From an uncultured delta proteobacterium (lineage in GTDB: Bacteria; Desulfobacterota; Desulfobaccia; Desulfobaccales; 0-14-0-80-60-11): a stretch of DNA of 64,000 nucleotides. Made by a program: the position numbers and the translations under genes. Positions 5,719 through 45,543 of the stretch are shown here, piece by piece. Each line of letters starts with the position of its first letter. The first letter of the stretch is position 1. The DNA lies in NCBI GenBank assembly GCA_963697965.1, contig OY969108.1, positions 246,467 to 310,466 on the forward strand, in the 5' to 3' direction. Below the pieces are notes generated by a model that saw only the letters and a program-made list of their open reading frames with translations, ran no database searches and was not told the origin of the DNA.

Positions 5719-6285
5719 TTATTCGAGGACCGCCTCCCCCTTTTCCTGGGGAGGCCGCCACCCCAGCAAACGGCTGGAATTGAAAAAGATCCCCAGGGTA
5801 TGCACCACGTGTATGGCGCCCGCCATCAGAGGGCCCAGACGGCCGCCGATGATCAGAAGTGCCCCCAGAAGATCCGTGGACACCGCCAGCCAGTAATTCT
5901 GTTCTATCACCCTCAGAGTTTGCCGGCTCAGACGCCTGACGAATAAAAGACGTGAGAGGTCACTGTCGGCCAGGGCGATATCCGCCGCGGCGATGGCGGC
6001 CTCAGCCCCCCCTGCGCCCATGGCCACTCCCACCTGGGCCCGGGAAAGGGCCAGGGCGTCGTTCACTCCATCACCCACCACCGCCACCCGGCGCCCTGCA
6101 GCCACCAACTCCTCCACATAATGAGATTTGTCGCCGGGCCGCAGACCCCCGGCCGATCCTTCGAAGTTAAATCTCTGGGCCAGGGCGCGGACCACTGGTT
6201 CCGTGTCCCCGCTGACCAGATGTATTTCCCGGACCCCTTCCCGGCGCAGACCGGACAGCACCGCTGGGACCTCGGGGCGGACCCA
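5719..6285 (-). pseudogene. remnant: C-terminal third of a heavy-metal-type P-type ATPase
   Basis: LVSGDTEPV, VVGDGVNDALAL hinge motif and terminal TM helices. Similarity starts abruptly at ...VRPEVPAVL near 6281; no actuator or phosphorylation domains lie upstream. Confidence 0.8.
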
Positions 6286-6590
6286 TCTTCGAAACCGCGG
6301 TGCTCACGGAAATCATCAAGACCCTCAGCCATCGGGGCCAGGAGCCCCAGGTATACTTTTGGCGCACCGCGGCCGGCGCCGAAGTGGATATCGTGGTGGC
6401 GGAAGGCGGAAGGCTGATTCCCCTGGAGGTTAAACTCTCCGCTACACCCCGCCAGGCCATGGCACGCAACCTCACAGGCTTCCAGAAGGACATGCAGGGC
6501 CGTGCCGCCCCCGGCTACATCATTCACCCCGGCGAAGTTCGGCTACCCCTGGCGCCAGGAGTTACCGCCCTGCCTTTCAGCGACCTTTAA
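6270..6590 (+). pseudogene. remnant: C-terminal (DUF4143-type) part of a COG1373-like AAA ATPase
   Basis: GPIFETAVLTEIIKTLSHRGQEPQVYFWRTAAGAEVDIVV...LIPLEVK. No ATPase domain upstream; it abuts the ATPase remnant head to head. Confidence 0.6.
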
Positions 6591-6703
6591 TGCTTCTACC
6601 GAGACGGTCAAGAATCAATCTGCCAATAGTGGTGACCAATGGGGAAAATCGGGTATTCAGACCATATATGGTATTTTTCCGCTTTGATGATAGGAGCCGA
6701 TCA

Positions 6704-6735
6704 TGGCAAGGTATGTGGCCAATAATCAATCTGAC
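6704..6735 (+). repeat. island repeat copy 1 (TGGCAAGGTATGTGGCCAATAATC...)
   Basis: Shares CATGGCAAGGTAT.TG with copy 2, and the pattern TGGC.AAGGT.TG..CC.ATAATC with copies 3 and 4. Lies 31 nt beyond the PLD stop. Confidence 0.5.
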
Positions 6736-6766
6736 TTTCTTCAGCAGCACTTGTCTATCCCTGGCT

Positions 6767-8342
6767 TCAACTCCCTCCTCCCGTAGAAACTCGACTTAAG
6801 TCGATACCAGCCAATACCCGCGGCGGGAAATCGGTGCCTTTCCAATCGTACACCCGCCCCTCTGGCACCTGTCCACTGCCCTTTGCCGCCTTATTACGGG
6901 CTGCTTGGGCTTTGAAGAAGGTTAAAGCATCACCCTGATTCTCAATCAATTCCAGCGCTTGCTCGATGGAAACCTGGAGGTGTTCTCTCCAAAGCTGCGC
7001 TACCCAATTTTTTATTGTAGCAGTGTCCATGAAGGCGATATTCATTTCAGAGTGGAACCACATGCTCGTGAAGGCGATGTTGGCCGATCCGCCGGTCATT
7101 ACCGTCCAATTGGGACCGAACACGGCCATAGTCTTCGAGTGAATATAGGTTTCGCTGTAGATGAATTTTTCCGGGGTCCGTGGATCAGGCCTGCAGTTGC
7201 CCAGGGTGAGTAGCGCTACATTATCATGGCCCTCCACCATCTTAGACTGATCCTGTAAATAAGAGATCCTCTCCCATTCCTTTTCAACTCTTCCTAGAAA
7301 CCTTCCCTCGTCTGGTTTCCAGGTCAGGAGGGCAATAATTTTGGCGCCTCGTTCGGCAGCCGCATGTATCTCGGCAATAATCCCGTGGTCGTAGAAGTAT
7401 TGGTTTTCGATGTAAACCAAACTTCCTTCCCCGGCGCTCGTCAAGGCTTTCAGATACGAGCTCCCTTATCCCCGTGTCTCCCTTCGGTATCGCGGGGTAG
7501 GTGTTCGGGGCGATGGTCCGCAGCACCTGAACCTCTATCCCGTCGGGCACTGGTGGAATCTTGTCTGCAGTGACCGGGGCCACCACATACGAGGTCACGT
7601 CAGCGTGGGGAATGCTGGCGCCATTATAGCGTTCGACAAAATTAGCCAGAACGTCGCCCACCGCGGGTCCCTTAATCCGGTAGAAAATGTCATGGAGCGG
7701 CGGATTCTGCTCAAGCCATTTAAGCGGATACGGATATTTCCACTCCACGCGTCGAACATCCAACGAATCGTGGTTCGGGGTATCCCAGTAAGTCTGAACC
7801 GGATTGATGCCGCCGACGAAGGCCACCCAGCCGTCTCCACCGTCATCCATGATGTAGGTCTTTTGATGATGACATCCAAATTCCGCAGAAAAATTAATAT
7901 CTTTAGGATCGAAGAGGTTCAGCACCGAAGTATACCGGCCATTAAAGCCTGGAGCTTTATCCCATCGGGCTTGGATGCTGCCAGGTCCCTCATTGACCCC
8001 TGGAATCTTATCAGGGGCCGGATCTGGGATGGTGTCCGGAGTGTGGAGGGCGGGCTGCCACACCACCATGCGAACGTCAACCCGGTCAATTGAGCGAGAC
8101 CTCAAAATGTAGAACAGCGTTTCCTCGACCTTCGGAACATCCGGAACCAATAGGAAATCCTGGTCGCCAAAGGAAATTGTCAGATAAATTAACTTCTTCG
8201 CCTTCTGGAAGGCATCGGCAATCTCGCCGTAGGCTGCCTGTCCATCAATGAGAATCTGAATCTCATTGCCCTGTCGCGGCGGATATGTACCTTCTTGCGC
8301 CCACAGCACGGAAGTTGGGTCAATGGCTTTAGATACTTCCAT
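6767..8342 (-). pseudogene. phospholipase D / two-HKD-motif family gene, interrupted by a 1-nt frameshift
   Basis: ORFs 7284-8342 and 6767-7444 each carry one HKD motif (HHQKTYIMD; IHSKTMAV). The frames join near 7455-7465 (...TGIRE / SYLKALTSAGEGSLVYIENQYF). Confidence 0.8.
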
Positions 8343-8425
8343 GTCTCACCTTCTGTTTTTGATGGTGATCCCGATAACTACATCATATCACAAATGCTTT
8401 TTGGAAATCCGATAAGTTTCTGACA

Positions 8426-8445
8426 TGGCAAGGTATATGATAGCC
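8426..8445 (+). repeat. island repeat copy 2 (TGGCAAGGTATATGATAGCC)
   Basis: 13-nt identity plus flanks with copy 1. Lies 84 nt upstream of the PLD start. Confidence 0.45.
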
Positions 8446-8711
8446 AGCAGCCATGCCCGGAAATGGCATGTGCATGTGGCCCTCAGCCTTTTCTTGGCAC
8501 ACCACTACCAGGAGATAATGGCCTGGAGTCCTTAACCTGCATTACAGTGAGGCATTCTGGTTCTAATGGTGGGGTGTATTCAGATTTTTTAACAAGTTAC
8601 TTGCTTCTTGGAAATTCGTGCTATCATGCCTCCCAAAGGACGCAACAAAAGATGAACCTTCTCGAGGTTAAGCTCGCGGGGGAGGTCCCCAAAACGATTT
8701 TTAGTTTGCGT

Positions 8712-8743
8712 TGGCCAAGGTTGCCCCATAATCTCGGTTTATA
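8712..8743 (+). repeat. island repeat copy 3 (TGGCCAAGGTTGCCCCATAATCTCGGTTTATA)
   Basis: About 28 of 31 positions identical to copy 4. Ends 28 nt before the 8772 start codon; a TATAAT hexamer follows at 8751-8756. Confidence 0.7.
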
Positions 8744-8771
8744 GAGACTGTATAATCATTGTTAGAGGCCT

Positions 8772-9350
8772 ATGGACGAACAACAGGCAAAGGCGCTCCA
8801 GGACCGCACAGAGGCGAAGGTGCGTTACGCGAGCGTGCACTTAGAGGAACTCGCTGCTCTCGAAGCACTGCGGGGAGACGACTTCGATAGGGCCCACCAA
8901 GAATCGTTCCTGTTCCACCTACTTGGAGCGCTCGATGCGTTCCTTGCCGAATTGAACTTCTATTATCAAGGCGGTCTCCCCGTCGAGGGTCTGACACCTG
9001 GCAAGCTCCGTGAGGTCCTCAAGGCACGCGGCGTCGAGAGTGTCGAGTTGAAAGAGATGCGGCAACTGTCGCAAAACGAGACATCCTGGATCAGGCGGGC
9101 AAAGACGATGCGCGATCACAGCACGCATATCCAGGGCGTCGCACGAACGTTCTTCGTAGGCGGAGACCAGGATGGAGAGGTTCGGTTGAAGGACCCGCGT
9201 ACCGCGGCCGATAGCCCACAGCATTTGGTCGACCAGTTCCGAGCTTGGGCAGACGAGATGCGGACTCTTGTTCGGCGGCTGAGGGAATCCGCGCTCGCAC
9301 GGTCGCCTCTAACTCGGAGTTCCAGCGGTCCGGCTGACCCCGACCGCTGA
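8772..9350 (+). CDS. hypothetical protein with Rx4H (HEPN-like) motif
   Basis: 192-aa ORF with a GAGG 4 nt upstream of the ATG. Helix-rich sequence; motif MRDHSTH (R114-x4-H119). No family recognised. Confidence 0.6.
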   Translation: MDEQQAKALQDRTEAKVRYASVHLEELAALEALRGDDFDRAHQESFLFHLLGALDAFLAELNFYYQGGLPVEGLTPGKLREVLKARGVESVELKEMRQLSQNETSWIRRAKTMRDHSTHIQGVARTFFVGGDQDGEVRLKDPRTAADSPQHLVDQFRAWADEMRTLVRRLRESALARSPLTRSSSGPADPDR

Positions 9351-9395
9351 ATGCGCGCGTTAACCTATGTTTTTCAAACCAAAAAGGAAATCTCC

Positions 9396-9962
9396 ATGAA
9401 CGCTGAATATGTCGTAGAATTCGCGAGAAACACTGTCCACTATCTGAATAACGATAAAAGATCATTCGAAAGCGTTTTAGACAATACAGATTTAACCGGC
9501 AAGCTTGGCTTTGCAATGATCGCCACAGCAATGGCAGCTTTTGACTTGTTTGCGTGGATTCTATATCAGTCATTCGACCTCAAGAAGACCAATAAGGCAC
9601 TATATAATGAGCTGATAAATGACGCACGGTTCTTTGATAAGAGGAAGTACGGTAACGAAATTGTATTCTACGGCATCATTCGCTGCGGGGTCATGCACCA
9701 ATTGTACCCCAAGCAGGCGAGCATCTCTGCACAAAAGAGTGCCACTATTCTTTACAATCATGGTGGTATATTGTGCATCAACTCATACGGGTTATTCTGT
9801 GACGTGATGGAAGGCTGCGAAAGAATACGAGACTACCTGGCTTCTCTTTCTGAAGCAGAAAAGACTGATTATTCACTGAAGCTGCTACTGAGGATCAAGA
9901 TTGACGAGGCTGAATACATAGGGGCAAGGGTAAATCTATCGTCTCTACCCGAATTGACATAG
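9396..9962 (+). CDS. hypothetical protein with Rx4H (HEPN-like) motif, low GC
   Basis: ORF open from 9351; ATG at 9396 has AAGGA upstream (MNAEYVVEF...). Motif IIRCGVMHQ (Rx4H). GC about 40% versus about 58% for the preceding gene. Confidence 0.55.
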   Translation: MNAEYVVEFARNTVHYLNNDKRSFESVLDNTDLTGKLGFAMIATAMAAFDLFAWILYQSFDLKKTNKALYNELINDARFFDKRKYGNEIVFYGIIRCGVMHQLYPKQASISAQKSATILYNHGGILCINSYGLFCDVMEGCERIRDYLASLSEAEKTDYSLKLLLRIKIDEAEYIGARVNLSSLPELT

Positions 9963-10091
9963 CAGCGCGTTGCAGCGGACCGGAATCGCGCTGGCGTTTT
10001 ATCTTGTCCCCAAGTTCCTGCTCGGGTACGCATGTTGGCGCCAAGCTTCGTTTGGCAAAAAGGCTGTCCGACCCCGGCACTTACTGCTTTT

Positions 10092-10146
10092 GAGCAAAAG
10101 CAGAGCTTTGAATGTAAGCAGGTTCCCGAAGGAGCTTGGGAACCAG
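10092..10146 (-). repeat. copy of chromosomal GTTCCCAAGCTCC...GGGAAC repeat family inside the island
   Basis: The reverse complement matches 19350-19403 over about 55 nt (CTGGTTCCCAAGCTCCT.C..GGGAACCT...CAAAGCTCTGCTTT.GC). Confidence 0.7.
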
Positions 10147-10179
10147 AAAGAAAGGTCTCCATCCATTTTTTGACTGCAG

Positions 10180-10210
10180 TGGCTAAGGCTGCCGCATAAT
10201 CTCGGTTATA
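10180..10210 (+). repeat. island repeat copy 4 (TGGCTAAGGCTGCCGCATAATCTCGGTTATA)
   Basis: Near-identical to copy 3. Ends 39 nt before the 10250 start codon. Confidence 0.7.
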
Positions 10211-10249
10211 ACCATATCAGAACATTTTATTAGTCTATACCGCTGAGAT

Positions 10250-10702
10250 ATGGCAGAAAAAATGATTTCTATAAGGTTTAGTAAGATTCTCTTTGTATGT
10301 GATGGCAATACCTGTCGAAGCCCAATGGCCGAGGCCATTGCACGAGGGTTACTCGGAACGACGGCCGATGTCCAAAGCGCTGGCATCGATGCTGATAGTG
10401 AGAGCTTGGCGAATAAAAAAGCCATCGCAGTGATGAAAGAAAGGGGGATCGATATCCGGGGGCACCGCTCTCGCGACATTGAAACCATCGATCTATCGGC
10501 CTTTGACCTGATCATAGCCATGACCCCGATTATAGCTCGATACCTCCGATCCCTTGGTATAAGTGGATCGAAGATCATTAAGCTCAACATCGAGGACCCA
10601 TACAATGAGGGTATTGAGGCGTACAGGTTCGCGGCTGAAGCTTTAGAGGTTGAGCTTCGACGTCTTTTCGGGATTGTCCCACCGAGGCAAGCGACAGAAT
10701 GA
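10250..10702 (+). CDS. low-molecular-weight protein tyrosine phosphatase family protein
   Basis: P-loop CDGNTCRS (CX5R-S) at residues 17-24, ILFVC start, DP acid loop (IEDPYN). Confidence 0.8.
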   Translation: MAEKMISIRFSKILFVCDGNTCRSPMAEAIARGLLGTTADVQSAGIDADSESLANKKAIAVMKERGIDIRGHRSRDIETIDLSAFDLIIAMTPIIARYLRSLGISGSKIIKLNIEDPYNEGIEAYRFAAEALEVELRRLFGIVPPRQATE

Positions 10703-11157
10703 AACAGGATCTCGTTCAGTACCTCTCGGATGCCATCTCCAGAGTGGAGGGTGGAAACGTTAGCAGTCCCTCAGGCTCATGGAGCGCGGGTATATTTGGG
10801 AAGGCCACCAACGCGTTTGAGAAAGAGGTACGTTCCTACGTTTTACGTCTGCTCAATTCCTGCAATCTCGACTACGAAATGGATTTGCGCTGTCTGCTAA
10901 AGGGTCTACCTTTCGAGAAGTTAACGCTGGGCAACCTGATTGCTGCCATACGAGAAGGTGCAAACCTGAGACCCCAGGCCGTAGCTCACAACGTTCCAGG
11001 TGGGTGGAAATTGACAGATTTCGTGAAGGCTTTGGAAAAGATCAACAAAACTTGGGTTGACACGAAGCATGGGCAAGAAGTGGCAGAACCTGTATTAATT
11101 GCCCAGATGAAGTCTATGCTCACCATCAGCAAAATGTTGAGGACACACCTCTGGTAG
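10699..11157 (+). CDS. hypothetical protein
   Basis: 152-aa ORF whose ATG overlaps the phosphatase stop (ATGA). Helix-rich, no recognised family; weak K/R-x-H motif (INKTWVDTKHG). Confidence 0.55.
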   Translation: MKQDLVQYLSDAISRVEGGNVSSPSGSWSAGIFGKATNAFEKEVRSYVLRLLNSCNLDYEMDLRCLLKGLPFEKLTLGNLIAAIREGANLRPQAVAHNVPGGWKLTDFVKALEKINKTWVDTKHGQEVAEPVLIAQMKSMLTISKMLRTHLW

Positions 11158-11492
11158 GAGCAATTTCTAATTATTTAAACTAAAATCAAAAATGTGAAAT
11201 CCTTCCGGATAGAGTTTAAGAAATAGGCCCTCGGTGCTGATCAATGCTATATCTTCACACTTCCTCACCCTGCTTTTGGCGTGCTAATATGCATACCATA
11301 GCTGTCTCTCAGAGCCTGATGGCATTCTCTTGGAAAATTTAAAAAAAATTTCCATCCAGATAATATTGATCAGGGGGGGAGGGACTGAGATGCCCCCAAA
11401 AGTGAGACACTTTTTATGAGAGGGTTGGTTTAAAGAAACCATGGCTCAAGTTACCCAGCAGCCCCTCTGGGGGTGGAGGGAGTGTCGATCGG

Positions 11493-17013: not shown

Positions 17014-17602
17014 ATGAAGATAATGCTGCCCATCGGACCCCTGATGATCGAACACCGCCTCATTGAGCGCCTGGTTGCCCTCATGAAGCAGGAGTTGGCC
17101 CGCCTTAAGGACAACGTTCGCGGTGGCGGCGGAGTTTGCCTTTGTGGACCCGGTCTTCATCGACACCGCGGTCGATTTCATCAGGACCTACGCCGGCCGC
17201 ACCCACCATGGCAAAGAGGAAGGCATCCTGTTCGCGGCCCTGGCCGGCAAGGACCTGACCCCGGAGCACCGCCAGACCATGGAGGAATTGATCGAGGACC
17301 ACCGCTGGGGCGAGCGGACCCTCGCCTCGCTGCTCCAGGCCAAGAATGACTATCTCCTGGAAAAAGCCGGTGCCCTGCCAGACCTCCTGCTGCATCTGGA
17401 GTCGCTGGCGGTTTTCTATCCCAACCATATTGAAAAAGAAGACAAACACTTCTTCCTGCCCAGCATGGGCTATTTCAGCGAGGCCGAAAAGGCGCAGATG
17501 CTGGAGCGCATCTGGGAATTCGACCGCAAGATGATCCATGAAACCTATCAACGCCAGGTGGAAGGCCTGGAACACGGGAAGGGCTGCAAGACGTGTAAGT
17601 AG
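17014..17602 (+). pseudogene. hemerythrin-like metal-binding protein, split by a 1-nt frameshift (or base-call error)
   Basis: The N-terminus MLPIGPLMIEHRLIERLVALM is in frame 1. The remainder (FVDPVFIDTAVDFIRTYAGRTHHGKEE...HIEKEDKHFF) is in frame 2 from about 17123. Confidence 0.7.
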
Positions 17603-34052: not shown

Positions 34053-34559
34053 ATGCCCATGAAACTGCTTCTTCTGCTGTCGGAAAGAAAAGTTAGCCTC
34101 ACGGAGCGGTGGCAGCAACGGCTTTTTGAGAGCTATCCTGCTGAAACCGCTACCTTTCTTAAAAAAGAGAAGGATCGTTTCGGCAACCCGGTGGGGCAGC
34201 GCCTCTCCCAGGGTCTCCGGGAGCTGGTGCAGGCGTTCCTGGCGGAGATGGACCGGGACCAGGTCCTGGCCGGTCTCGACGAAATCCTGAGGATCAGGGC
34301 CATCCAGGACTTCACCCCATCCCAGGCCCTGGCCTTCATTTTCCTGTTGAAGAACGTCATTCGCGAGGAACTGGCCCCGGAGCTGAAGAGCGGCCAATAT
34401 TCCCAGGAACTTCAGGAGCTGGAGGCCCGCATCGACGGCCTGGCCCTGCTGGGTTTTGACGTTTACACCCAGCGCCGGGAGCTGCTCAACCAGGTCCGGG
34501 TCGATGAGATCAGGGGCCGGGTCAGCGGCCTGCTGCGCCGCACCGGATTGTCCTTATGA
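34053..34559 (+). CDS. hypothetical protein, RsbRD N-terminal-domain-like, upstream of dsrM
   Basis: 168-aa helical protein (ERWQQRLFESYPAETATFLKKEKDRFGNPVG...). Assignment is from memory of similar genes next to dsr operons. Confidence 0.5.
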   Translation: MPMKLLLLLSERKVSLTERWQQRLFESYPAETATFLKKEKDRFGNPVGQRLSQGLRELVQAFLAEMDRDQVLAGLDEILRIRAIQDFTPSQALAFIFLLKNVIREELAPELKSGQYSQELQELEARIDGLALLGFDVYTQRRELLNQVRVDEIRGRVSGLLRRTGLSL

Positions 34560-34609: not shown

Positions 34610-35647
34610 ATGGATTTTTTTAAACGACATTTCACGGTGGCTCTGGCGGCCGTCCTGGGGCTCGTGCTGGTGGCCTACCTCGGGGTCTCGGCCAAGTTAC
34701 AGCTTATCTTCGGGGTGGTGGCGCCGTATCTGGCCGTCCTCATTTTCGTGGAAGGGTTTATCTATCGCCTCCTCCAGTGGTCCAGGTCGCCAGTGCCTTT
34801 CCAGATTCCCACCACCGGCGGCCAGCAGGAATCCCTGCCCTGGATCGAAAGAAACCTGGGCGACAAACTGGACAACCCCTACACCACCAAGCACGTGATC
34901 GGCCGGATGGCCTTGGAAGTTCTGGCCTTTCGCAGCCTTTTCCGGAACCTGCGCAGCGAATTGCGCCAGGACCCGGAAAACCCCGGGGGGGCCCGCTTGA
35001 TTCACTGGTCCTACAAATGGCTGTGGCTGGGAGCCATCGCCTTCCATTACGCCTTCCTGGTCGTGGTGCTGCGGCACCTGCGCTTTTTCACCGAGCCGGT
35101 GCCGGGCTTCATCCAACTGCTGGACAAAGTGGACGGCTTCTTCCAGTTCTTCACCCCGGTCTTCTACCTCAGCGGCGCGGTGCTGGTGGTGGCGGTCGCC
35201 TATCTGCTGGCCCGCCGCCTCACCAATCCCATGCTGCGCTATATTTCCCTGGTGCCCGATTATTTTCCCCTATTGATGATCCTGGCCATCGGCATCTCCG
35301 GGATCCTCATGCGCTACGTCTATAAGGTGGACGTGGTGGCCATCAAGCAGCTGACCCTGGGTCTGGTGACCCTGCACCCCACAGTGCCGGCGGGCATCGG
35401 CCCCATCTTTTTCGTCCATATCTTTCTGGTGAGCGTGTTCATCGCCTACTTCCCCTTCAGCAAACTGATGCACGCCCCCGGGGTCTTCCTGAGCCCTTCC
35501 AGAAATATGGCCACCAACACCCGGGCGGTGCGGCACGTCAATCCCTGGAATTACCCGGTGAAGTTCCATCATTATGACGAATACGAAGATAGATTTCGGG
35601 AAGCCATGGTAGAGGCCGATATCCCGGTGGAAAAGGAGTTGGAGTAA
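34610..35647 (+). CDS. dsrM: DsrM, NarI/HdrE-like membrane heme-b subunit of the DsrMKJOP complex
   Basis: 345-aa polytopic membrane protein with conserved His residues, directly followed by dsrKJOP. Confidence 0.8.
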   Translation: MDFFKRHFTVALAAVLGLVLVAYLGVSAKLQLIFGVVAPYLAVLIFVEGFIYRLLQWSRSPVPFQIPTTGGQQESLPWIERNLGDKLDNPYTTKHVIGRMALEVLAFRSLFRNLRSELRQDPENPGGARLIHWSYKWLWLGAIAFHYAFLVVVLRHLRFFTEPVPGFIQLLDKVDGFFQFFTPVFYLSGAVLVVAVAYLLARRLTNPMLRYISLVPDYFPLLMILAIGISGILMRYVYKVDVVAIKQLTLGLVTLHPTVPAGIGPIFFVHIFLVSVFIAYFPFSKLMHAPGVFLSPSRNMATNTRAVRHVNPWNYPVKFHHYDEYEDRFREAMVEADIPVEKELE

Positions 35648-35648
35648 C

Positions 35649-37299
35649 ATGGCCAAAGCTAAGAGCACGGTTCCAAAACCGGAAGAAATCCTACCCGGGA
35701 TAAGCTATAAGACCCCCGCCAAGGGCTGGATGGACGTCAAGCCGGAATTCAAGCCGGGAACCTATTGCAATCCCGCCAACCCCAAGTGGGCGGAATGGAT
35801 CGAATATCCGTTCCGGCGCAACTGGTCGGTAACCGAGGAGGACTGGCACCTGCCCGCCGATTGGAAGGAGATCATCCTCCAGGGCATGGAAGACCGCCTC
35901 AACCGGTTCCGTTCCCTGAAGCTCTTCTTCGACATTTGCGTTCGCTGCGGCGCCTGCGCCGACAAGTGCCACTTCTTCCTGGGCACCGGGGACCCCAAGA
36001 ATATGCCGGTGCTCCGGGCCGAGCTGATGCGCTCTGTTTACAAGCGCTATTTCAAACCGGCGGGCAAAATCCTGGGGGAGCTGGTGGGGGCCCGGGACCT
36101 CACGGAAGAGGTGATCAAGGAGTGGTTCTACTATCTCTACCAGTGCACCGAATGCCGGCGCTGCTCCCTGTTTTGCCCCTACGGGATCGACATGGCCGAA
36201 ATGACCATCCTGGGCCGGGAACTGTTGAGCCTCCATCGGGGTAAACATCGAGTGGACCATGGCCTCGGTGGCCCAGTGCTATGACAAAGGCAGCCACATC
36301 GGCGCCACCCCCCAGGCGATGAAGGACATGATCGACTTCTTCGCCGAGGAAAATGAGAGGGTCACCGGAATCGCCACCCCGATCACTTACAATCGTAAGG
36401 GTGCTGAGATCCTCTTCGTGGCGCCCTCGGGGGACTACTTCGCCGACCCGGGCACCTACACCTTCATGGGGTACATGCTGCTCTTCACTTACCTGGGCCT
36501 GGATTGGACCCTGAGCACCTATGCGGGTGAAGGCGGCAACTTCGGCTTCTTCATGTCCCACGAAATGGGCAAGCGCCTCAACGCCAAGATCTACCACGAA
36601 GCCAAGCGCCTGGGGGTGAAATATATCATCGGCGGCGAATGCGGCCACATGTGGCGCATCGTCAACCAGTATATGGACACCATGAACGGGCCGGCGGATT
36701 TCCTGGAGGTGCCCAAATCGCCCATCACCGGCACGGTGTTCAAAAACGCCGCCAGCACCAAGATGATTCACATCTCGGAGTTCACCGCCGACCTGATCCG
36801 GCATAACAAGTTGCAGTTTGACACCCAGCGCAACGCCCATATCAAGCTGACTTTTCACGACTCCTGCAACACCAGCCGGGGCATGGGGATCTTCGAGGAA
36901 CCCCGCTACATTATCAGGAATGTCCTGCCCGAAGGGCATTTCTTCGAGATGCCCCCCAACACCATCCGGGAGAAGACCTTTTGCTGCGGCAGCGGCAGCG
37001 GCTTCAACGCCGACGAATATCTGGAGACCAGGCTGCGGGGCGGGCTGCCCCGGGCCAACGCCGTCCGCTACGTGGCCGATAAATACGGAGTGAACCATCT
37101 GGGCTGCATCTGCGCCATCGACCGGGCGGTGTTTCCCGCCCTGATGAATTACTGGGTCCCGGAGATGGAGGTCACCGGCATCAGCGAAATGGTGGGCAAC
37201 GCCCTGGTATTTCCCGAAGAGATAGAGCGCACCACCGACCTGCGGGATCGAGACCTGGTAGGCGTTGGTTCGCCTGAGGAAGGGGAGGAAGCGGACTAG
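35649..37299 (+). pseudogene. dsrK: DsrK (HdrD-like Fe-S/CCG-domain subunit), split by one extra base near 36231-36234 (true frameshift or base-call error)
   Basis: The 5-prime ORF carries CVRCGACADKC and CTECRRCSLFCP. The 3-prime ORF (frame +1) carries the CCG-type motif (FCCGSGSG). The frames join as ...ILGRELLSL/IGVNIEWTMASVAQCYDKG. Confidence 0.85.
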
Positions 37300-37301
37300 C
37301 C

Positions 37302-37784
37302 ATGGCAGATAAATACCAAAACGAATTCGGTGGCTTTGCCGAAAAGCCCAAGGTTCCCAAGAAGTTTTATGACCTCAAATACATCCTCTTGGGCCTGGTC
37401 ATCTTCTTCGGTCTGGTTTTCTCTCCCATCTTGCCCAACCTGGGGAAGATCGTGGCGGCGCCGTCACCCAACCTGGACACCCCGGCCATCCTCAAGCTGG
37501 CGAAGAAGGACCGGCAGTGCGTCATGCCCACCCCCTACATGCGGACCTACCATATGCAGCTGCTGATCGATTGGCGGGAAGCGGCGATCCGCCATGGCAA
37601 CCGGGAATTCATCTCGCCTACGGGCAAGAAGTTCGTCGCCAACCTTTCCGACACCTGCATGGGATGTCACTCCAATAAAAGCAAATTTTGCGATCAATGC
37701 CACAACTTTGCCGCGGTAACCCCCAACTGCTGGGGTTGCCATCTGGATAAGGAGCAGAAGGTGGCGAAGGGGGGGGCGAAGTGA
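37302..37784 (+). CDS. dsrJ: DsrJ, periplasmic triheme cytochrome c
   Basis: Three CXXCH motifs (CMGCH, CDQCH, CWGCH) and an N-terminal membrane anchor. Confidence 0.85.
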   Translation: MADKYQNEFGGFAEKPKVPKKFYDLKYILLGLVIFFGLVFSPILPNLGKIVAAPSPNLDTPAILKLAKKDRQCVMPTPYMRTYHMQLLIDWREAAIRHGNREFISPTGKKFVANLSDTCMGCHSNKSKFCDQCHNFAAVTPNCWGCHLDKEQKVAKGGAK

Positions 37785-38596
37785 TGGGTATGGACAGAAG
37801 GGATTTTATCAAGCTGGCCGGTCTCTCCACCTTACTGGGGCTGGGGTCCAATTCCGCCTTGGAACTGCTGCGGCCCGGTCAGGCAGCCGCCGCCCTGGAG
37901 GGGGAGGCGAAACCCCTGACCGCCAAGAGATGGGCCATGGTAGTCAACATGCGCCAGTTGGATGGAGAGACTGCCCAGAAATGCATTGCGGCCTGCAACC
38001 GGGTCCACAACGTCCCAGATTTCGGCAATCCCATCGCTCCGGCCATGAAACTCAGCGCCGCGGATAAGGCCCGCTGGGAGATCAAGTGGATCTGGACCGC
38101 TCCTTATGAGAACACCTTTCCCGGGGACACCCAGGAGTATGTGGACGAAAAGGTCAAGGACCTCAAGTTCCTGTTGCTTTGCAACCATTGCGACAATCCC
38201 CCCTGCGTGCGGGTCTGCCCCACCAAGGCCACCTTCCGCCAGGAGGACGGCATCGTCATGATGGATATGCACCGCTGCATCGGCTGCCGCTTCTGCATGG
38301 CCGCCTGTCCCTTCGGCGCCCGGAGCTTCAACTGGAAAGACCCTCGGCCTTACATCAAGGAAGTTAATCCCGATTACCCCACCCGGGAAATCGGGGTGGT
38401 GGAAAAGTGCCTCTTCTGCTCCGAACGGCTGGCGATCGGGCTGATGCCCGCCTGCGTGGTAGCTTCCCAGGGGGCCCTGGCCTTCGGCGATCTCAGGGAT
38501 CCCAAGTCCAAGGTGCGGGAACTGCTGGACGCCAATTTTACCATCCGGCGCAAGCCCTTCCTCGGCACTAACCCTCAGGTTTACTATATCGTGTGA
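37784..38596 (+). CDS. dsrO: DsrO, periplasmic 4Fe-4S ferredoxin-like subunit
   Basis: Tat signal MDRRDFIKLAG and multiple Cys clusters (CNHCDNPPCVRVCP, CIGCRFCMAACP, CLFC). TGATG overlap with dsrJ. Confidence 0.85.
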   Translation: MGMDRRDFIKLAGLSTLLGLGSNSALELLRPGQAAAALEGEAKPLTAKRWAMVVNMRQLDGETAQKCIAACNRVHNVPDFGNPIAPAMKLSAADKARWEIKWIWTAPYENTFPGDTQEYVDEKVKDLKFLLLCNHCDNPPCVRVCPTKATFRQEDGIVMMDMHRCIGCRFCMAACPFGARSFNWKDPRPYIKEVNPDYPTREIGVVEKCLFCSERLAIGLMPACVVASQGALAFGDLRDPKSKVRELLDANFTIRRKPFLGTNPQVYYIV

Positions 38597-38603
38597 GGTA
38601 GCC

Positions 38604-39761
38604 ATGCTGGAAAATGCCTTTACCGGAACCAAGCGATATTATGGATTGATAGCCATTTTGTCGGGCCTCTTCGCTCTGGGATTCCTCTTCTATCTAAAAC
38701 AGCTCTCCACCGGGTTGGGGATCACCGGCATGGGCCGGGACGTCTCCTGGGGCCTTTACATCGCCCAATTTACCTACCTGGTCGGAGTGGCGGCCTCCGC
38801 GGTCATGGTGGTTCTCCCTTACTACCTACATGACTACAAGGCCTTCGGCCGGGTCACCATCCTGGGGGAATTCCTGGCGGTGGCTGCGGTAACCATGTGC
38901 GTCACCTTCGTGCTGGTGGACATGGGGCGGCCGGACCGGGTGCTCAACGTCTTCAAGTACCCCACTCCCGGTTCGGTCATGTTTTGGGATATCCTCGTCT
39001 TGAACGGCTATCTCCTGCTCAATATCCTCATCGGCTGGAACGTGCTCGAATGCGAACGCCATGACGTGCCGCCTCCCCACTGGGTCAAGACCCTCATCTA
39101 TATATCCATTCCCTGGGCGGTCAGCATCCACACGGTAACCGCCTTTCTTTACGCAGGCCTGCCTGGCCGGAGCTACTGGCTCACCGCGCTCATGGCCCCC
39201 CGCTTCCTGGCCTCGGCCTTTGCCGCGGGCCCTTCCCTGCTGGTGCTTCTCTGCCTGCTGGTGCGTAAATACACCAAATTCGACCCGGGGCGGGAGCAGA
39301 TCCAAAGCCTGGCGAAAATCATCACCTACGCCACCCTGATCAACGTCTTTTTCTTTTTCTGCGAAATTTTCACGGTGTTTTACAGCCAGATCCCGGAAGA
39401 AATGATCCACTTCAAGTACCTGTTTTGGGGGGTGGACGGTTTCGGCCGGCTGGTGCCCCTCATGTGGTTCTCCATCGTCGGCATGACGCTCGCCGGCCTG
39501 CTCCTGGTCAATCCGAATAATCGCCGTAATGAAAACACCCTGGCGGCCCTGTGCGGCCTGGTGATCATCACCACCTGGATCGACAAAGGACTGGGGTTGA
39601 TGACCGGCGGCTTCGTGCCCAATCCCCTGGATAAGATCACCGAATACTGGCCCACCCTGCCCGAGGCCCTGATCGCCCTGGGGGTTTGGGCCCTGGGTTT
39701 CCTGGTTCTCACCCTCCTCTACAAGGTGGCGGTTTCCATTAAGGAGGAGGTGCGGGCCTAG
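38604..39761 (+). CDS. dsrP: DsrP, NrfD/PsrC-like integral membrane subunit
   Basis: 385 aa with about 10 TM helices; last gene of dsrMKJOP. Confidence 0.8.
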   Translation: MLENAFTGTKRYYGLIAILSGLFALGFLFYLKQLSTGLGITGMGRDVSWGLYIAQFTYLVGVAASAVMVVLPYYLHDYKAFGRVTILGEFLAVAAVTMCVTFVLVDMGRPDRVLNVFKYPTPGSVMFWDILVLNGYLLLNILIGWNVLECERHDVPPPHWVKTLIYISIPWAVSIHTVTAFLYAGLPGRSYWLTALMAPRFLASAFAAGPSLLVLLCLLVRKYTKFDPGREQIQSLAKIITYATLINVFFFFCEIFTVFYSQIPEEMIHFKYLFWGVDGFGRLVPLMWFSIVGMTLAGLLLVNPNNRRNENTLAALCGLVIITTWIDKGLGLMTGGFVPNPLDKITEYWPTLPEALIALGVWALGFLVLTLLYKVAVSIKEEVRA

Positions 39762-39971: not shown

Positions 39972-40160
39972 ATGGCCTGGCAGGTGGAAGTCGATCACGA
40001 AAAGTGCACCGGGGACGAAGAGTGTGTCAATGTTTGTCCGGTGGGCGTCTTTGAAATGCAGGAAGGCAAGGCAGTTCCCGTCAATGAAGAGGAATGCCTG
40101 GGCTGCGAGAGTTGCGTCGAGGTCTGCCCTTCCAGCGCAATTACCGTAACCGAATTGTAA
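39972..40160 (+). CDS. 2x[4Fe-4S] ferredoxin
   Basis: 62 aa; CTGDEECVNVCP and CLGCESCVEVCP. Strong RBS GGGAGG. Confidence 0.85.
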   Translation: MAWQVEVDHEKCTGDEECVNVCPVGVFEMQEGKAVPVNEEECLGCESCVEVCPSSAITVTEL

Positions 40161-43418: not shown

Positions 43419-44330
43419 ATGTTGACCATCCTGGCGCAAAATGTCCTGAATGCCCTGCAACTGGGGAGCGTTTACGCCCTCATCGCCCTGGGCTATACCA
43501 TGGTCTACGGCATTCTCACTATGATCAACTTCGCCCACGGCGATATCTTCATGGTGAGCAGCTATCTCAGCCTGGCCGGAGCCACCCTGCTGCTGGGCCT
43601 GCCCCTGCGCCTGCCCCCCTTTCTGGTGTTCACCGGGGCACTGGCCTTCAGTATGACCCTCACCGCGCTCCTGGGGGTGACCATCGAACGCCTGGCCTAC
43701 CGGCCATTGCGCCAGGCGCCCCGGGTCTCCGCGGTGATCACCGCCCTGGGGGTGGGCCTGTTCCTGGAAAATTTCACCCTGGGACTGTTGGGGCCGGCGC
43801 CCCGGCACTTTCCCTCGTTGATTACCAATACCCCCTGGCAGGTGGCCGGCCTCACCATTACGCCGCTGCAAGTGCTCATCATCCTGTTGGCCGCGGCCCT
43901 GATGATCCTTCTGGACCTCCTGGTGCGCCGTACCCTGCTGGGCATGGCCATGCGAGCCATCTCCTACCACCGCCCCATCGTGCCCCTCATGGGGGTGTCG
44001 GTTGACCGGGTCATCTCCCTCACCTTCGCCATCGGCTCGGCCATTGCCGCGGCCGGCGGCCTGATGTTCGCCCTGGCCTACCCGGTGCTGGACCCCTATA
44101 TGGGCATCCGCATCGGCTGGTGGGCCTTCATCGCCGCGGTGGTGGGCGGCATCGGCAATATCCGGGGCGCCATGCTGGGAGGCTTTATCCTGGGCGCGGT
44201 GGAAGTCTTCACCCCGCTGCTGCTGCCGTCTTCCACCTACCGGGACTTTGTGGCCTTCTCGCTGCTACTCCTCCTCCTGGTCTTCAAACCCACCGGCCTC
44301 CTGGGCCGCCCGGTGTTTGAAAGGGTGTAA
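43419..44330 (+). CDS. livH: branched-chain amino acid ABC transporter permease
   Basis: 303 aa; LivH-like TM profile (MLTILAQNVLNALQLGSVYALIALGYTMVYG). Confidence 0.88.
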   Translation: MLTILAQNVLNALQLGSVYALIALGYTMVYGILTMINFAHGDIFMVSSYLSLAGATLLLGLPLRLPPFLVFTGALAFSMTLTALLGVTIERLAYRPLRQAPRVSAVITALGVGLFLENFTLGLLGPAPRHFPSLITNTPWQVAGLTITPLQVLIILLAAALMILLDLLVRRTLLGMAMRAISYHRPIVPLMGVSVDRVISLTFAIGSAIAAAGGLMFALAYPVLDPYMGIRIGWWAFIAAVVGGIGNIRGAMLGGFILGAVEVFTPLLLPSSTYRDFVAFSLLLLLLVFKPTGLLGRPVFERV

Positions 44331-44556
44331 AAGCAGTAGCCAGTAGTCAGTAGCCAGTTAGCATTTAGTTTTTTTTTGAGCATTGGCGTTAATGCCAACC
44401 ACTTTAAGTGATTTATCAAAGAACATTAAACAGGAATTGGGCAGGCTATGCCCGCCGAATTTAGGCGGCCACAGGCCGCCCTAAATAAGTTAGGAGAGGA
44501 GGTTTCAAACAGACTGATACTGTCAACTGACTACTGGCTACTGACTACTGTTAATA
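44331..44556. mobile_element. MITE-like 226-nt insert with ~28-nt word-repeat terminal inverted repeats, between livH and livM
   Basis: The left arm GCAGTAGCCAGTAGTCAGTAGCCAGTTAGC (44333-44362) is inverted in CAACTGACTACTGGCTACTGACTACTG (44524-44550). Internal hairpins include ATTTAGGCGGCC aca GGCCGCCCTAAAT. No ORF. Confidence 0.55.
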
Positions 44557-45543
44557 ATGGCAACTTCTGATAAAAGAAAAAAATTCCTGATTTACTCCGG
44601 AGCGGCCCTGTTGCTGGCGGTGGCCCGGGTCTTGCCGGACAGCGGCCTGCTCAACCCCTACGTGGTGCAGATTATGATGTACGTGGGGATCAATATGATC
44701 CTCACTCTAAGCCTCAATCTGGTTAACGGTTACATGGGGGAATTTTCCGTGGGCCATGCCGGCTTCATGGGCATTGGCGCCTACGTAGCCTCCATCCTGA
44801 CGGTGGCGGTGCTGCCCCGCTCCTGGTCGCCCTGGCTCTTCCCGGGGGTGCTGGTGACCGGGGGCCTGGCCGCGGCCGCGGCCGGGCTCATCGTGGCCTA
44901 TCCCTCCTTTCGCACCCGGGGGGATTACCTGGCCATCGTCACCCTGGCCTTCAATATGATCGTCAAGAGTGTACTGGAGAACATCGACGCCGTGGGCGGC
45001 CCCCGAGGCTACCTGGGCATGCCTCGCCTCACCAGCCTCTTCTGGGTGACGGCCTGGGTCCTGATCACCCTGATGGCGCTGCGCAACCTGGTGTACTCCA
45101 ATTTCGGCCGGGGCATCACGGCCATCCGCGAGGACGAGATGGCTGCCAACCTCACTTCGGTGAACACCCGCCGCCTGAAACTTTACGCCTTCCTGATTTC
45201 GGCATTTTTCACCGGACTGGCCGGGGGCCTATACGCCCACCTGCTGCAGTTCATCGACCCCCGGAGCTTCTCCATTCTCAAGTCCACCGACATGCTGGTG
45301 ATGGTCTATCTGGGCGGGGTGGGCAGCCTCACCGGCTCGCTCCTGGGCGCCACCATCTTCACGGTGCTCATGGAACTGCTGCGCTTCCTGGGGATCTGGC
45401 GCTGGGTGGTGGGGCCGCTGCTCCTGGTGCTGTTAATGATCTTTAGGCCCCAGGGCCTCATGGGCTTCAAAGAGGCCCGCTGGCTCAAGCCGGCGCCAAT
45501 ATTTGCCGGAGAGGGAGAGAGCGTGGTGGACGATAAGGAGTGA
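44557..45543 (+). CDS. livM: branched-chain amino acid ABC transporter permease
   Basis: 328 aa with a LivM-like TM profile. Confidence 0.85.
   Translation: MATSDKRKKFLIYSGAALLLAVARVLPDSGLLNPYVVQIMMYVGINMILTLSLNLVNGYMGEFSVGHAGFMGIGAYVASILTVAVLPRSWSPWLFPGVLVTGGLAAAAAGLIVAYPSFRTRGDYLAIVTLAFNMIVKSVLENIDAVGGPRGYLGMPRLTSLFWVTAWVLITLMALRNLVYSNFGRGITAIREDEMAANLTSVNTRRLKLYAFLISAFFTGLAGGLYAHLLQFIDPRSFSILKSTDMLVMVYLGGVGSLTGSLLGATIFTVLMELLRFLGIWRWVVGPLLLVLLMIFRPQGLMGFKEARWLKPAPIFAGEGESVVDDKE

Follow-up and report, generated by a model that had tools for sequence, protein, structure and literature searches.

The dsrMKJOP operon and the break in dsrK

A complete dsrMKJOP gene set extends over positions 34610-39761 on the + strand of the window (the whole stretch of DNA that was analysed, 64 kb in length with a G+C content of 60.4%). 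The dsrM gene (34610-35647, + strand) is intact and encodes a protein of 345 aa that matches NCBIfam model NF038037 with 499.6 bits against a cut-off of 300, and unchanged copies of this DsrM protein were found in 90 blocks of the collection, from many public assemblies. Also intact and on the + strand are dsrJ (37302-37784; NF038038, 148.7 bits against a cut-off of 100), dsrO (37781-38596; NF045797, 286 bits against 200) and dsrP (38604-39761; NF045798, 475.6 bits against 350). A 168-aa RsbRD_N-domain gene (34053-34559) lies directly upstream of dsrM, a position conserved in all near-identical contigs, and a 62-aa ferredoxin gene (39972-40160) lies downstream of dsrP; both are possible accessory genes of the operon.

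Between dsrM and dsrJ, dsrK is present as two overlapping open reading frames (ORFs) on the + strand. The 5' fragment (35649-36284, 211 aa) matches positions 10-149 of NF045796 with 251.4 bits, together with Pfam Fer4_8 and Fer4_17, and it is genuine DsrK as far as residue 194, a stretch that contains two CX2CX2CX3C ferredoxin motifs (CVRCGACADKC and CTECRRCSLFCP). After ...ILGRELLSL this ORF runs out of frame for 16 codons (HRGKHRVDHGLGGPVL) until it meets a stop, such that the 17 last codons, which lie past an extra C, consist of a Leu codon (Ser in relatives) and the 16 out-of-frame codons. The 3' part, in the +1 frame (36229-37299; first ATG at 36259, giving 346 aa), matches positions 153-448 of NF045796 with 434.2 bits, exceeding on its own the curated cut-off of 400 bits, and also Pfam CCG (PF02754). 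It carries GGECGH, which includes the GECGH cysteine, and HDSC...FCCGSG...CAID (with FCCGSGSG), a single CCG motif of the variant with Asp as its last ligand. Traced upstream, the 3' frame stays open as far as the TGA at 36226-36228, with the reading ASIGVNIEWTMASVAQCYDKG.

Because the two ORFs match adjoining positions of the DsrK profile, they represent one gene with a clean one-base frame break. The original prediction of a dsrK split by one extra base is thus borne out by the two ORFs, by their matches to the two halves of NF045796 and by relatives that are one base shorter, and on rereading of the sequence the ORF ends, the motifs and the extent of the open 3' frame were as it had described them. 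On profile matches and gene order, with the DsrM, DsrJ, DsrO and DsrP equivalog matches adjacent and on the same strand, the assignment to the DsrK family is unambiguous. A single uninterrupted frame of about 540-560 aa is found in all relatives, including those whose DNA is identical but for the extra C, while the window gene is broken at 36230/1 after residue 194; the break follows deterministically from the sequence, and chance is not at issue.

[quoted passage not shown] The window gene resembles the known DsrK (PMC10861901) in its two [4Fe-4S] motifs, its GECGH motif, its Asp-variant CCG motif and its position between dsrM and dsrJOP. Nothing sets it apart from known DsrK once the extra C is removed, although the frame is broken as deposited.

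The extra base is one C of the CC at 36230-36231 (+ strand), since the window reads GAGCCTCC where relatives read GAGCTCC; in the junction alignment close relatives have GAGCTCCATCGG and the window has GAGCCTCCATCGG, and the restored protein junction is ELLSSIGVNIEW. It had been proposed that one C be removed from CTCC (36231-36234) to obtain a continuous protein of about 550 aa. This repair holds for the first base of CTCC, as removal of C 36231 is equivalent to the correct repair and yields 549 aa, but not for C 36233 or C 36234, the removal of which was rejected as it would give ELLSLIGVNIEW, unlike the relatives. The site is a few bases from a strain-variable position, and it adjoins the break point of short-read assemblies.

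dsrK in relatives and in assemblies of the same population

Among 80 relatives fetched for comparison (species-representative genomes, 65-96% aa identity), the extra C was absent from every one that spans the site. The best 120 DsrK homologues were all full length (512-563 aa) and none was split; the closest named relatives were Desulfobaccales metagenome-assembled genomes (MAGs) with 93-96% identity, with Desulfobacca acetoxidans at 74%.

Five near-identical contigs cover the site (99.68-99.87% DNA identity) and all five lack the extra C: L081 (ENA ERZ27249999, contig k141_854584), L082 (JGI 3300038425), L083 (ENA ERZ25039544, contig_24235), L084 (the MAG NCBI GCA_050010855.1) and L091 (JGI contig Ga0187857_10022838, 3.5 kb, from an older sample, 99.7% identity). 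The first four, which come from four different sources and were compared with the window over about 20 kb, all contain a 549-aa dsrK reading frame. With base 36230 deleted, the window gene is identical to that of L083 (1650/1650 nt) and differs from those of L081, L082 and L084 by two synonymous substitutions, and the repaired DsrK is identical to the proteins of all four (549/549 aa). In the public record this exact 549-aa protein is encoded on 18 contigs (NCBI, JGI, Logan and ENA), while a protein-cluster look-up placed the 211-aa and 346-aa fragments on one contig only, of 3,445,514 bp; an exact-protein look-up of encoding contigs found neither dsrK fragment. A 25-nt junction pattern containing the extra C gave 0 matches in 241 million JGI metagenome records, and the same pattern without the extra C was matched in JGI metagenome records. 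The closest MAG (GCA_052327085.1) showed 100% identity over 15.6 kb, the retrieved part lying outside dsrK. GCA_049697895.1 is a further near-identical MAG.

L091 has a dsrK lesion of its own, a 2-base deletion (TTTT to TT) at its positions 2640-2650, corresponding to window 36171-36179. The deletion falls inside the second ferredoxin motif (CSLFCP), 60 nt upstream of the position of the extra C and with a C>T change nearby, and is private to that short contig of 3.5 kb; either an error or a rare variant may lie behind it.

Two database proteins of 346 aa (P0124 and P0125, both starting MASVAQCYDKG) were considered as conserved split forms of DsrK and rejected as contig-edge artefacts, because all seven contigs that carry them begin at the same base. 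The carriers (L096-L102) are seven JGI contigs from six samples, represent two relatives whose DsrK shares about 93% aa identity with that of the window, and have their position 1 at window 36240, 10 nt past the extra C and 20 nt short of the ATG. Their common start probably reflects a break in the assembly graph at a point of divergence between co-occurring strains; there the window reads CTGTTGAGC and the relatives read CTCTTGAGC and CTCCTGAGC. Split dsrK genes conserved among relatives, which had been named beforehand as evidence against an error in the record, were thus not found once these 346-aa entries were recognised as edge artefacts. The original prediction had also rated a real frameshift and an insertion error as equally good explanations. 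The two do not stand level, given that the extra C is absent from every relative and that the repaired protein is found on 18 contigs and the fragments on a single 3.45-Mb contig.

One-base insertions in the window and the origin of the extra C

All 64,000 bases of the window were tiled with near-identical assemblies (99.7-100% identity) by way of further anchor genes. The indels private to the window in this full tiling were three one-base insertions and one 7-bp repeat unit; the 64-kb tiling revealed no window-private one-base deletion and no one-base indel beyond the three. Because no others appeared across the whole window, the three lesions listed in the original prediction (in dsrK, a PLD gene and a hemerythrin gene) form a complete list, and the same +1 defect was confirmed in the latter two genes. 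The PLD-like gene (6767-8342, - strand) contains an extra C (+ strand base) at 7457 that is absent from 3/3 covering near-identical contigs and splits the gene into ORFs of 352 and 225 aa; with this base removed, a 524-aa protein identical to that of the L092 gene is obtained. The hemerythrin gene (17014-17602, + strand) contains an extra T, one of the TT at 17117-17118, that is absent from 6/6 covering contigs, and its removal exactly restores the 192-aa hemerythrin of L092. All three insertions lie in coding sequence and break the frame; they are private to one assembly, and each removal restores exactly the protein of independent assemblies.

The assemblies closest to the window differ from it by 0-4 substitutions per 14-21 kb (L085, 0 in 15,573 nt; L104, 1 in 14,316 nt; L111, 2 in 20,940 nt; L092, 4 in 17,182 nt) and are without any of the three one-base insertions in the parts covered. 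The ratio of indels to substitutions between the window and these assemblies is near 1:1. A lineage with so few substitutions should not have fixed three insertions that break the frames of conserved genes, and a ratio of about 1:1 in which every one-base indel breaks a conserved gene is not what selection leaves. Secondary decay was not seen, as the remainder of dsrK, the dsrM, dsrJ, dsrO and dsrP genes and the rest of the other affected genes are intact.

Taken together, these comparisons indicate that the extra C is very probably a consensus error, introduced by sequencing or polishing, in the source assembly; the cause, a read or consensus error, is inferred from the distribution of the base among assemblies. 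The source would be a long-read assembly, as suggested by its consisting of one 3.45-Mb contig from an uncultured Desulfobaccales bacterium. The true dsrK would then encode 549 aa without interruption, both the gene and its dsrMKJOP operon being ordinary, and the insertions at 7457 and 17117/8 would be errors of the same kind, at a rate of about 1 per 21 kb. Held across the contig, this rate would amount to about 160 falsely frameshifted genes, a figure extrapolated from three events.

Frameshifted gene calls arising from long-read consensus indels are a documented problem (Sereika et al. 2022, PMC9262707). The window resembles such cases (PMC9262707) in having several isolated one-base indels, private to one assembly that is a multi-megabase single contig, each of which splits a perfectly conserved gene into adjacent ORFs. 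It departs from typical long-read indel errors in that the sites are not long homopolymers and all three events are insertions, and the likeness is to be read with the platform being inferred and with two of the three sites touching GAGCTCC.

With regard to sequence context, two of the extra bases repeat the letter beside them (CC and TT) and the third does not; the lack of long homopolymers means that this is not the classic nanopore homopolymer signature. Finding only insertions and no deletion is slightly unexpected, with the sample limited to three. The insertions at 7457 and 36230 both touch GAGCTCC, which contains the SacI-type palindrome GAGCTC (19 sites in the window, 2/19 affected), and the third, at 17117/8, sits in ACGTCGCG without GAGCTCC; no k-mer of at least 4 bases was common to all three insertion sites. 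If GAGCTC is taken as given, the chance of at least two of three insertions falling at the motif is 1.3e-5, a value that overstates the case because the motif was chosen after seeing the data; a fairer simulation, still post hoc, put the chance that any 7-mer is shared at 0.04 and that a palindromic 6-mer is shared at 0.002. GAGCTC is a plausible methylation target, and a motif-linked consensus error due to methylation may be at work there, which is a weak post hoc lead and not a result. Mixed-strain pile-ups are another possible cause of the error at the dsrK site, and either of the two, a methylated GAGCTC motif or mixed-strain pile-ups, would perhaps have aggravated it.

A real, very recent and strain-private +1 insertion that inactivates dsrK, with loss of DsrC-trisulfide reduction by DsrMKJOP, would account for the extra C being present in the deposited sequence, and the different dsrK lesion of L091 could hint at dsrK-defective variants in the population. 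Such a history is nevertheless improbable, as it sets an insertion seen in one assembly against an intact, identical protein on 18 contigs, needs three independent frame-breaking insertions to have been fixed amid 0-4 substitutions per 14-21 kb, and would have left dsrK and the rest of the operon free of secondary decay, while the lesion in L091 is itself confined to a single short contig of older date. Were the extra C real, for which we see little likelihood, the sequence would represent a peat or soil Desulfobaccales strain with new frame-breaking insertions in its dsrK, PLD-like and hemerythrin genes. The setting could then be a background prone to indels or of mutator type, or a process directed at GAGCTC sites; DsrMKJOP-dependent DsrC-trisulfide reduction would be lost, or run by HdrC-like and HdrB-like fragments, and a peptide from the first fragment would end ...ELLSLHRGKHRVDHGLGGPVL.

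More doubtful still, to the point of being highly improbable, is a functional two-polypeptide DsrK whose ferredoxin-like N-terminus and CCG-domain C-terminus are made as separate chains, in the manner of HdrC and HdrB. In that system HdrC is the separate ferredoxin-like partner, and HdrD and DsrK are fused counterparts of HdrB and HdrC. HdrB is the separate catalytic subunit of HdrABC, with HdrD and DsrK as membrane-bound homologues (PMC10861901). The break in the window does separate the ferredoxin part with its two clusters from the part that carries GECGH and CCG, with ATG 36259 closely downstream, and the two ORFs correspond roughly to the HdrC-like and HdrB-like parts of soluble heterodisulfide reductase. 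The resemblance ends there, because, unlike HdrB and HdrC, the two parts of DsrK occur split in no relative (the 346-aa entries being contig-edge artefacts), the second part is without a proper start and the first would gain a nonsense tail of 16 residues. ATG 36259 is without a good ribosome-binding site, with GAGTGG only 3 nt upstream where the dsrK and dsrJ starts have GGAG or GGAGG instead, and it is overrun by 25 nt by the upstream ORF.

Programmed +1 ribosomal frameshifting or transcriptional slippage restoring full-length DsrK, which is given next to no credence here, was rejected on sequence grounds and for lack of conservation: a +1 shift anywhere in 36229-36281 would give a near-normal protein, and the overlap of two ORFs, the second of them shifted to +1, recalls prfB, but AGC CUC CAU CGG has no slippery codon and permits no +1 P-site re-pairing, and the site has no CUU-U-type sequence, no in-frame stop or hungry codon (CGG being freely used in the window), no upstream or internal Shine-Dalgarno-like stimulator and no A or T run for polymerase slippage, and the shift is not conserved, strains with otherwise identical DNA encoding DsrK in one frame.

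We therefore return to a consensus error as the preferred explanation and hold, with high confidence on comparative grounds, that the dsrK split is not a biological feature and that the repaired gene would be a standard DsrK. The evidence points to a normal dsrMKJOP operon in the organism and to about one false one-base insertion per 21 kb in the source assembly. At face value, the record would describe a sulfate or sulfite reducer with a lost or remodelled catalytic subunit of its terminal reductase complex, and automated pipelines taking the split as it stands would score the genome as being without dsrK. Before gene content, pseudogene counts or metabolism are read from the source genome, it needs to be polished or annotated in a frameshift-aware way, and the link of two of the three errors to GAGCTC offers a small lead for studies of motif-dependent consensus errors.

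Strain-variable features elsewhere in the window

The 7-bp unit private to the window belongs to an intergenic heptamer tandem repeat (CAGTAGC/CAGTAGT) at 44330-44560, between two branched-chain ABC permease genes, which has an inverted copy about 200 nt downstream; the extra unit lies at 44341 and was scored against three near-identical assemblies.

A private one-base indel was also seen outside the window sequence, in an AAA run of ERZ25039544:contig_24235 (L104, about position 17300; window 10878). The indel shortens the low-molecular-weight phosphatase gene of this contig to 125 aa; the window and the remaining assemblies encode 150 aa. It provides a separate instance of such an artefact in a second assembly of the population, and from the style of its name contig_24235 presumably derives from long reads.

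Window 5719-11200 is a strain-variable island that appears lower in G+C, as judged by eye from the translated ORFs, and for its anchor protein (9351-9962) no exact match was found. Past position 6281, L103 and L105 continue with a full 751-aa P-type ATPase, a hydrolase and an integrase, while the window, L092, L094 and L104 retain only a 180-aa ATPase remnant. The remnant is followed by a DUF4143 fragment, the PLD-like gene, DUF6586, a 203-aa ORF, the phosphatase and a 152-aa ORF, and the 203-aa ORF of the window is called as 188 aa in L092, L094 and L104.
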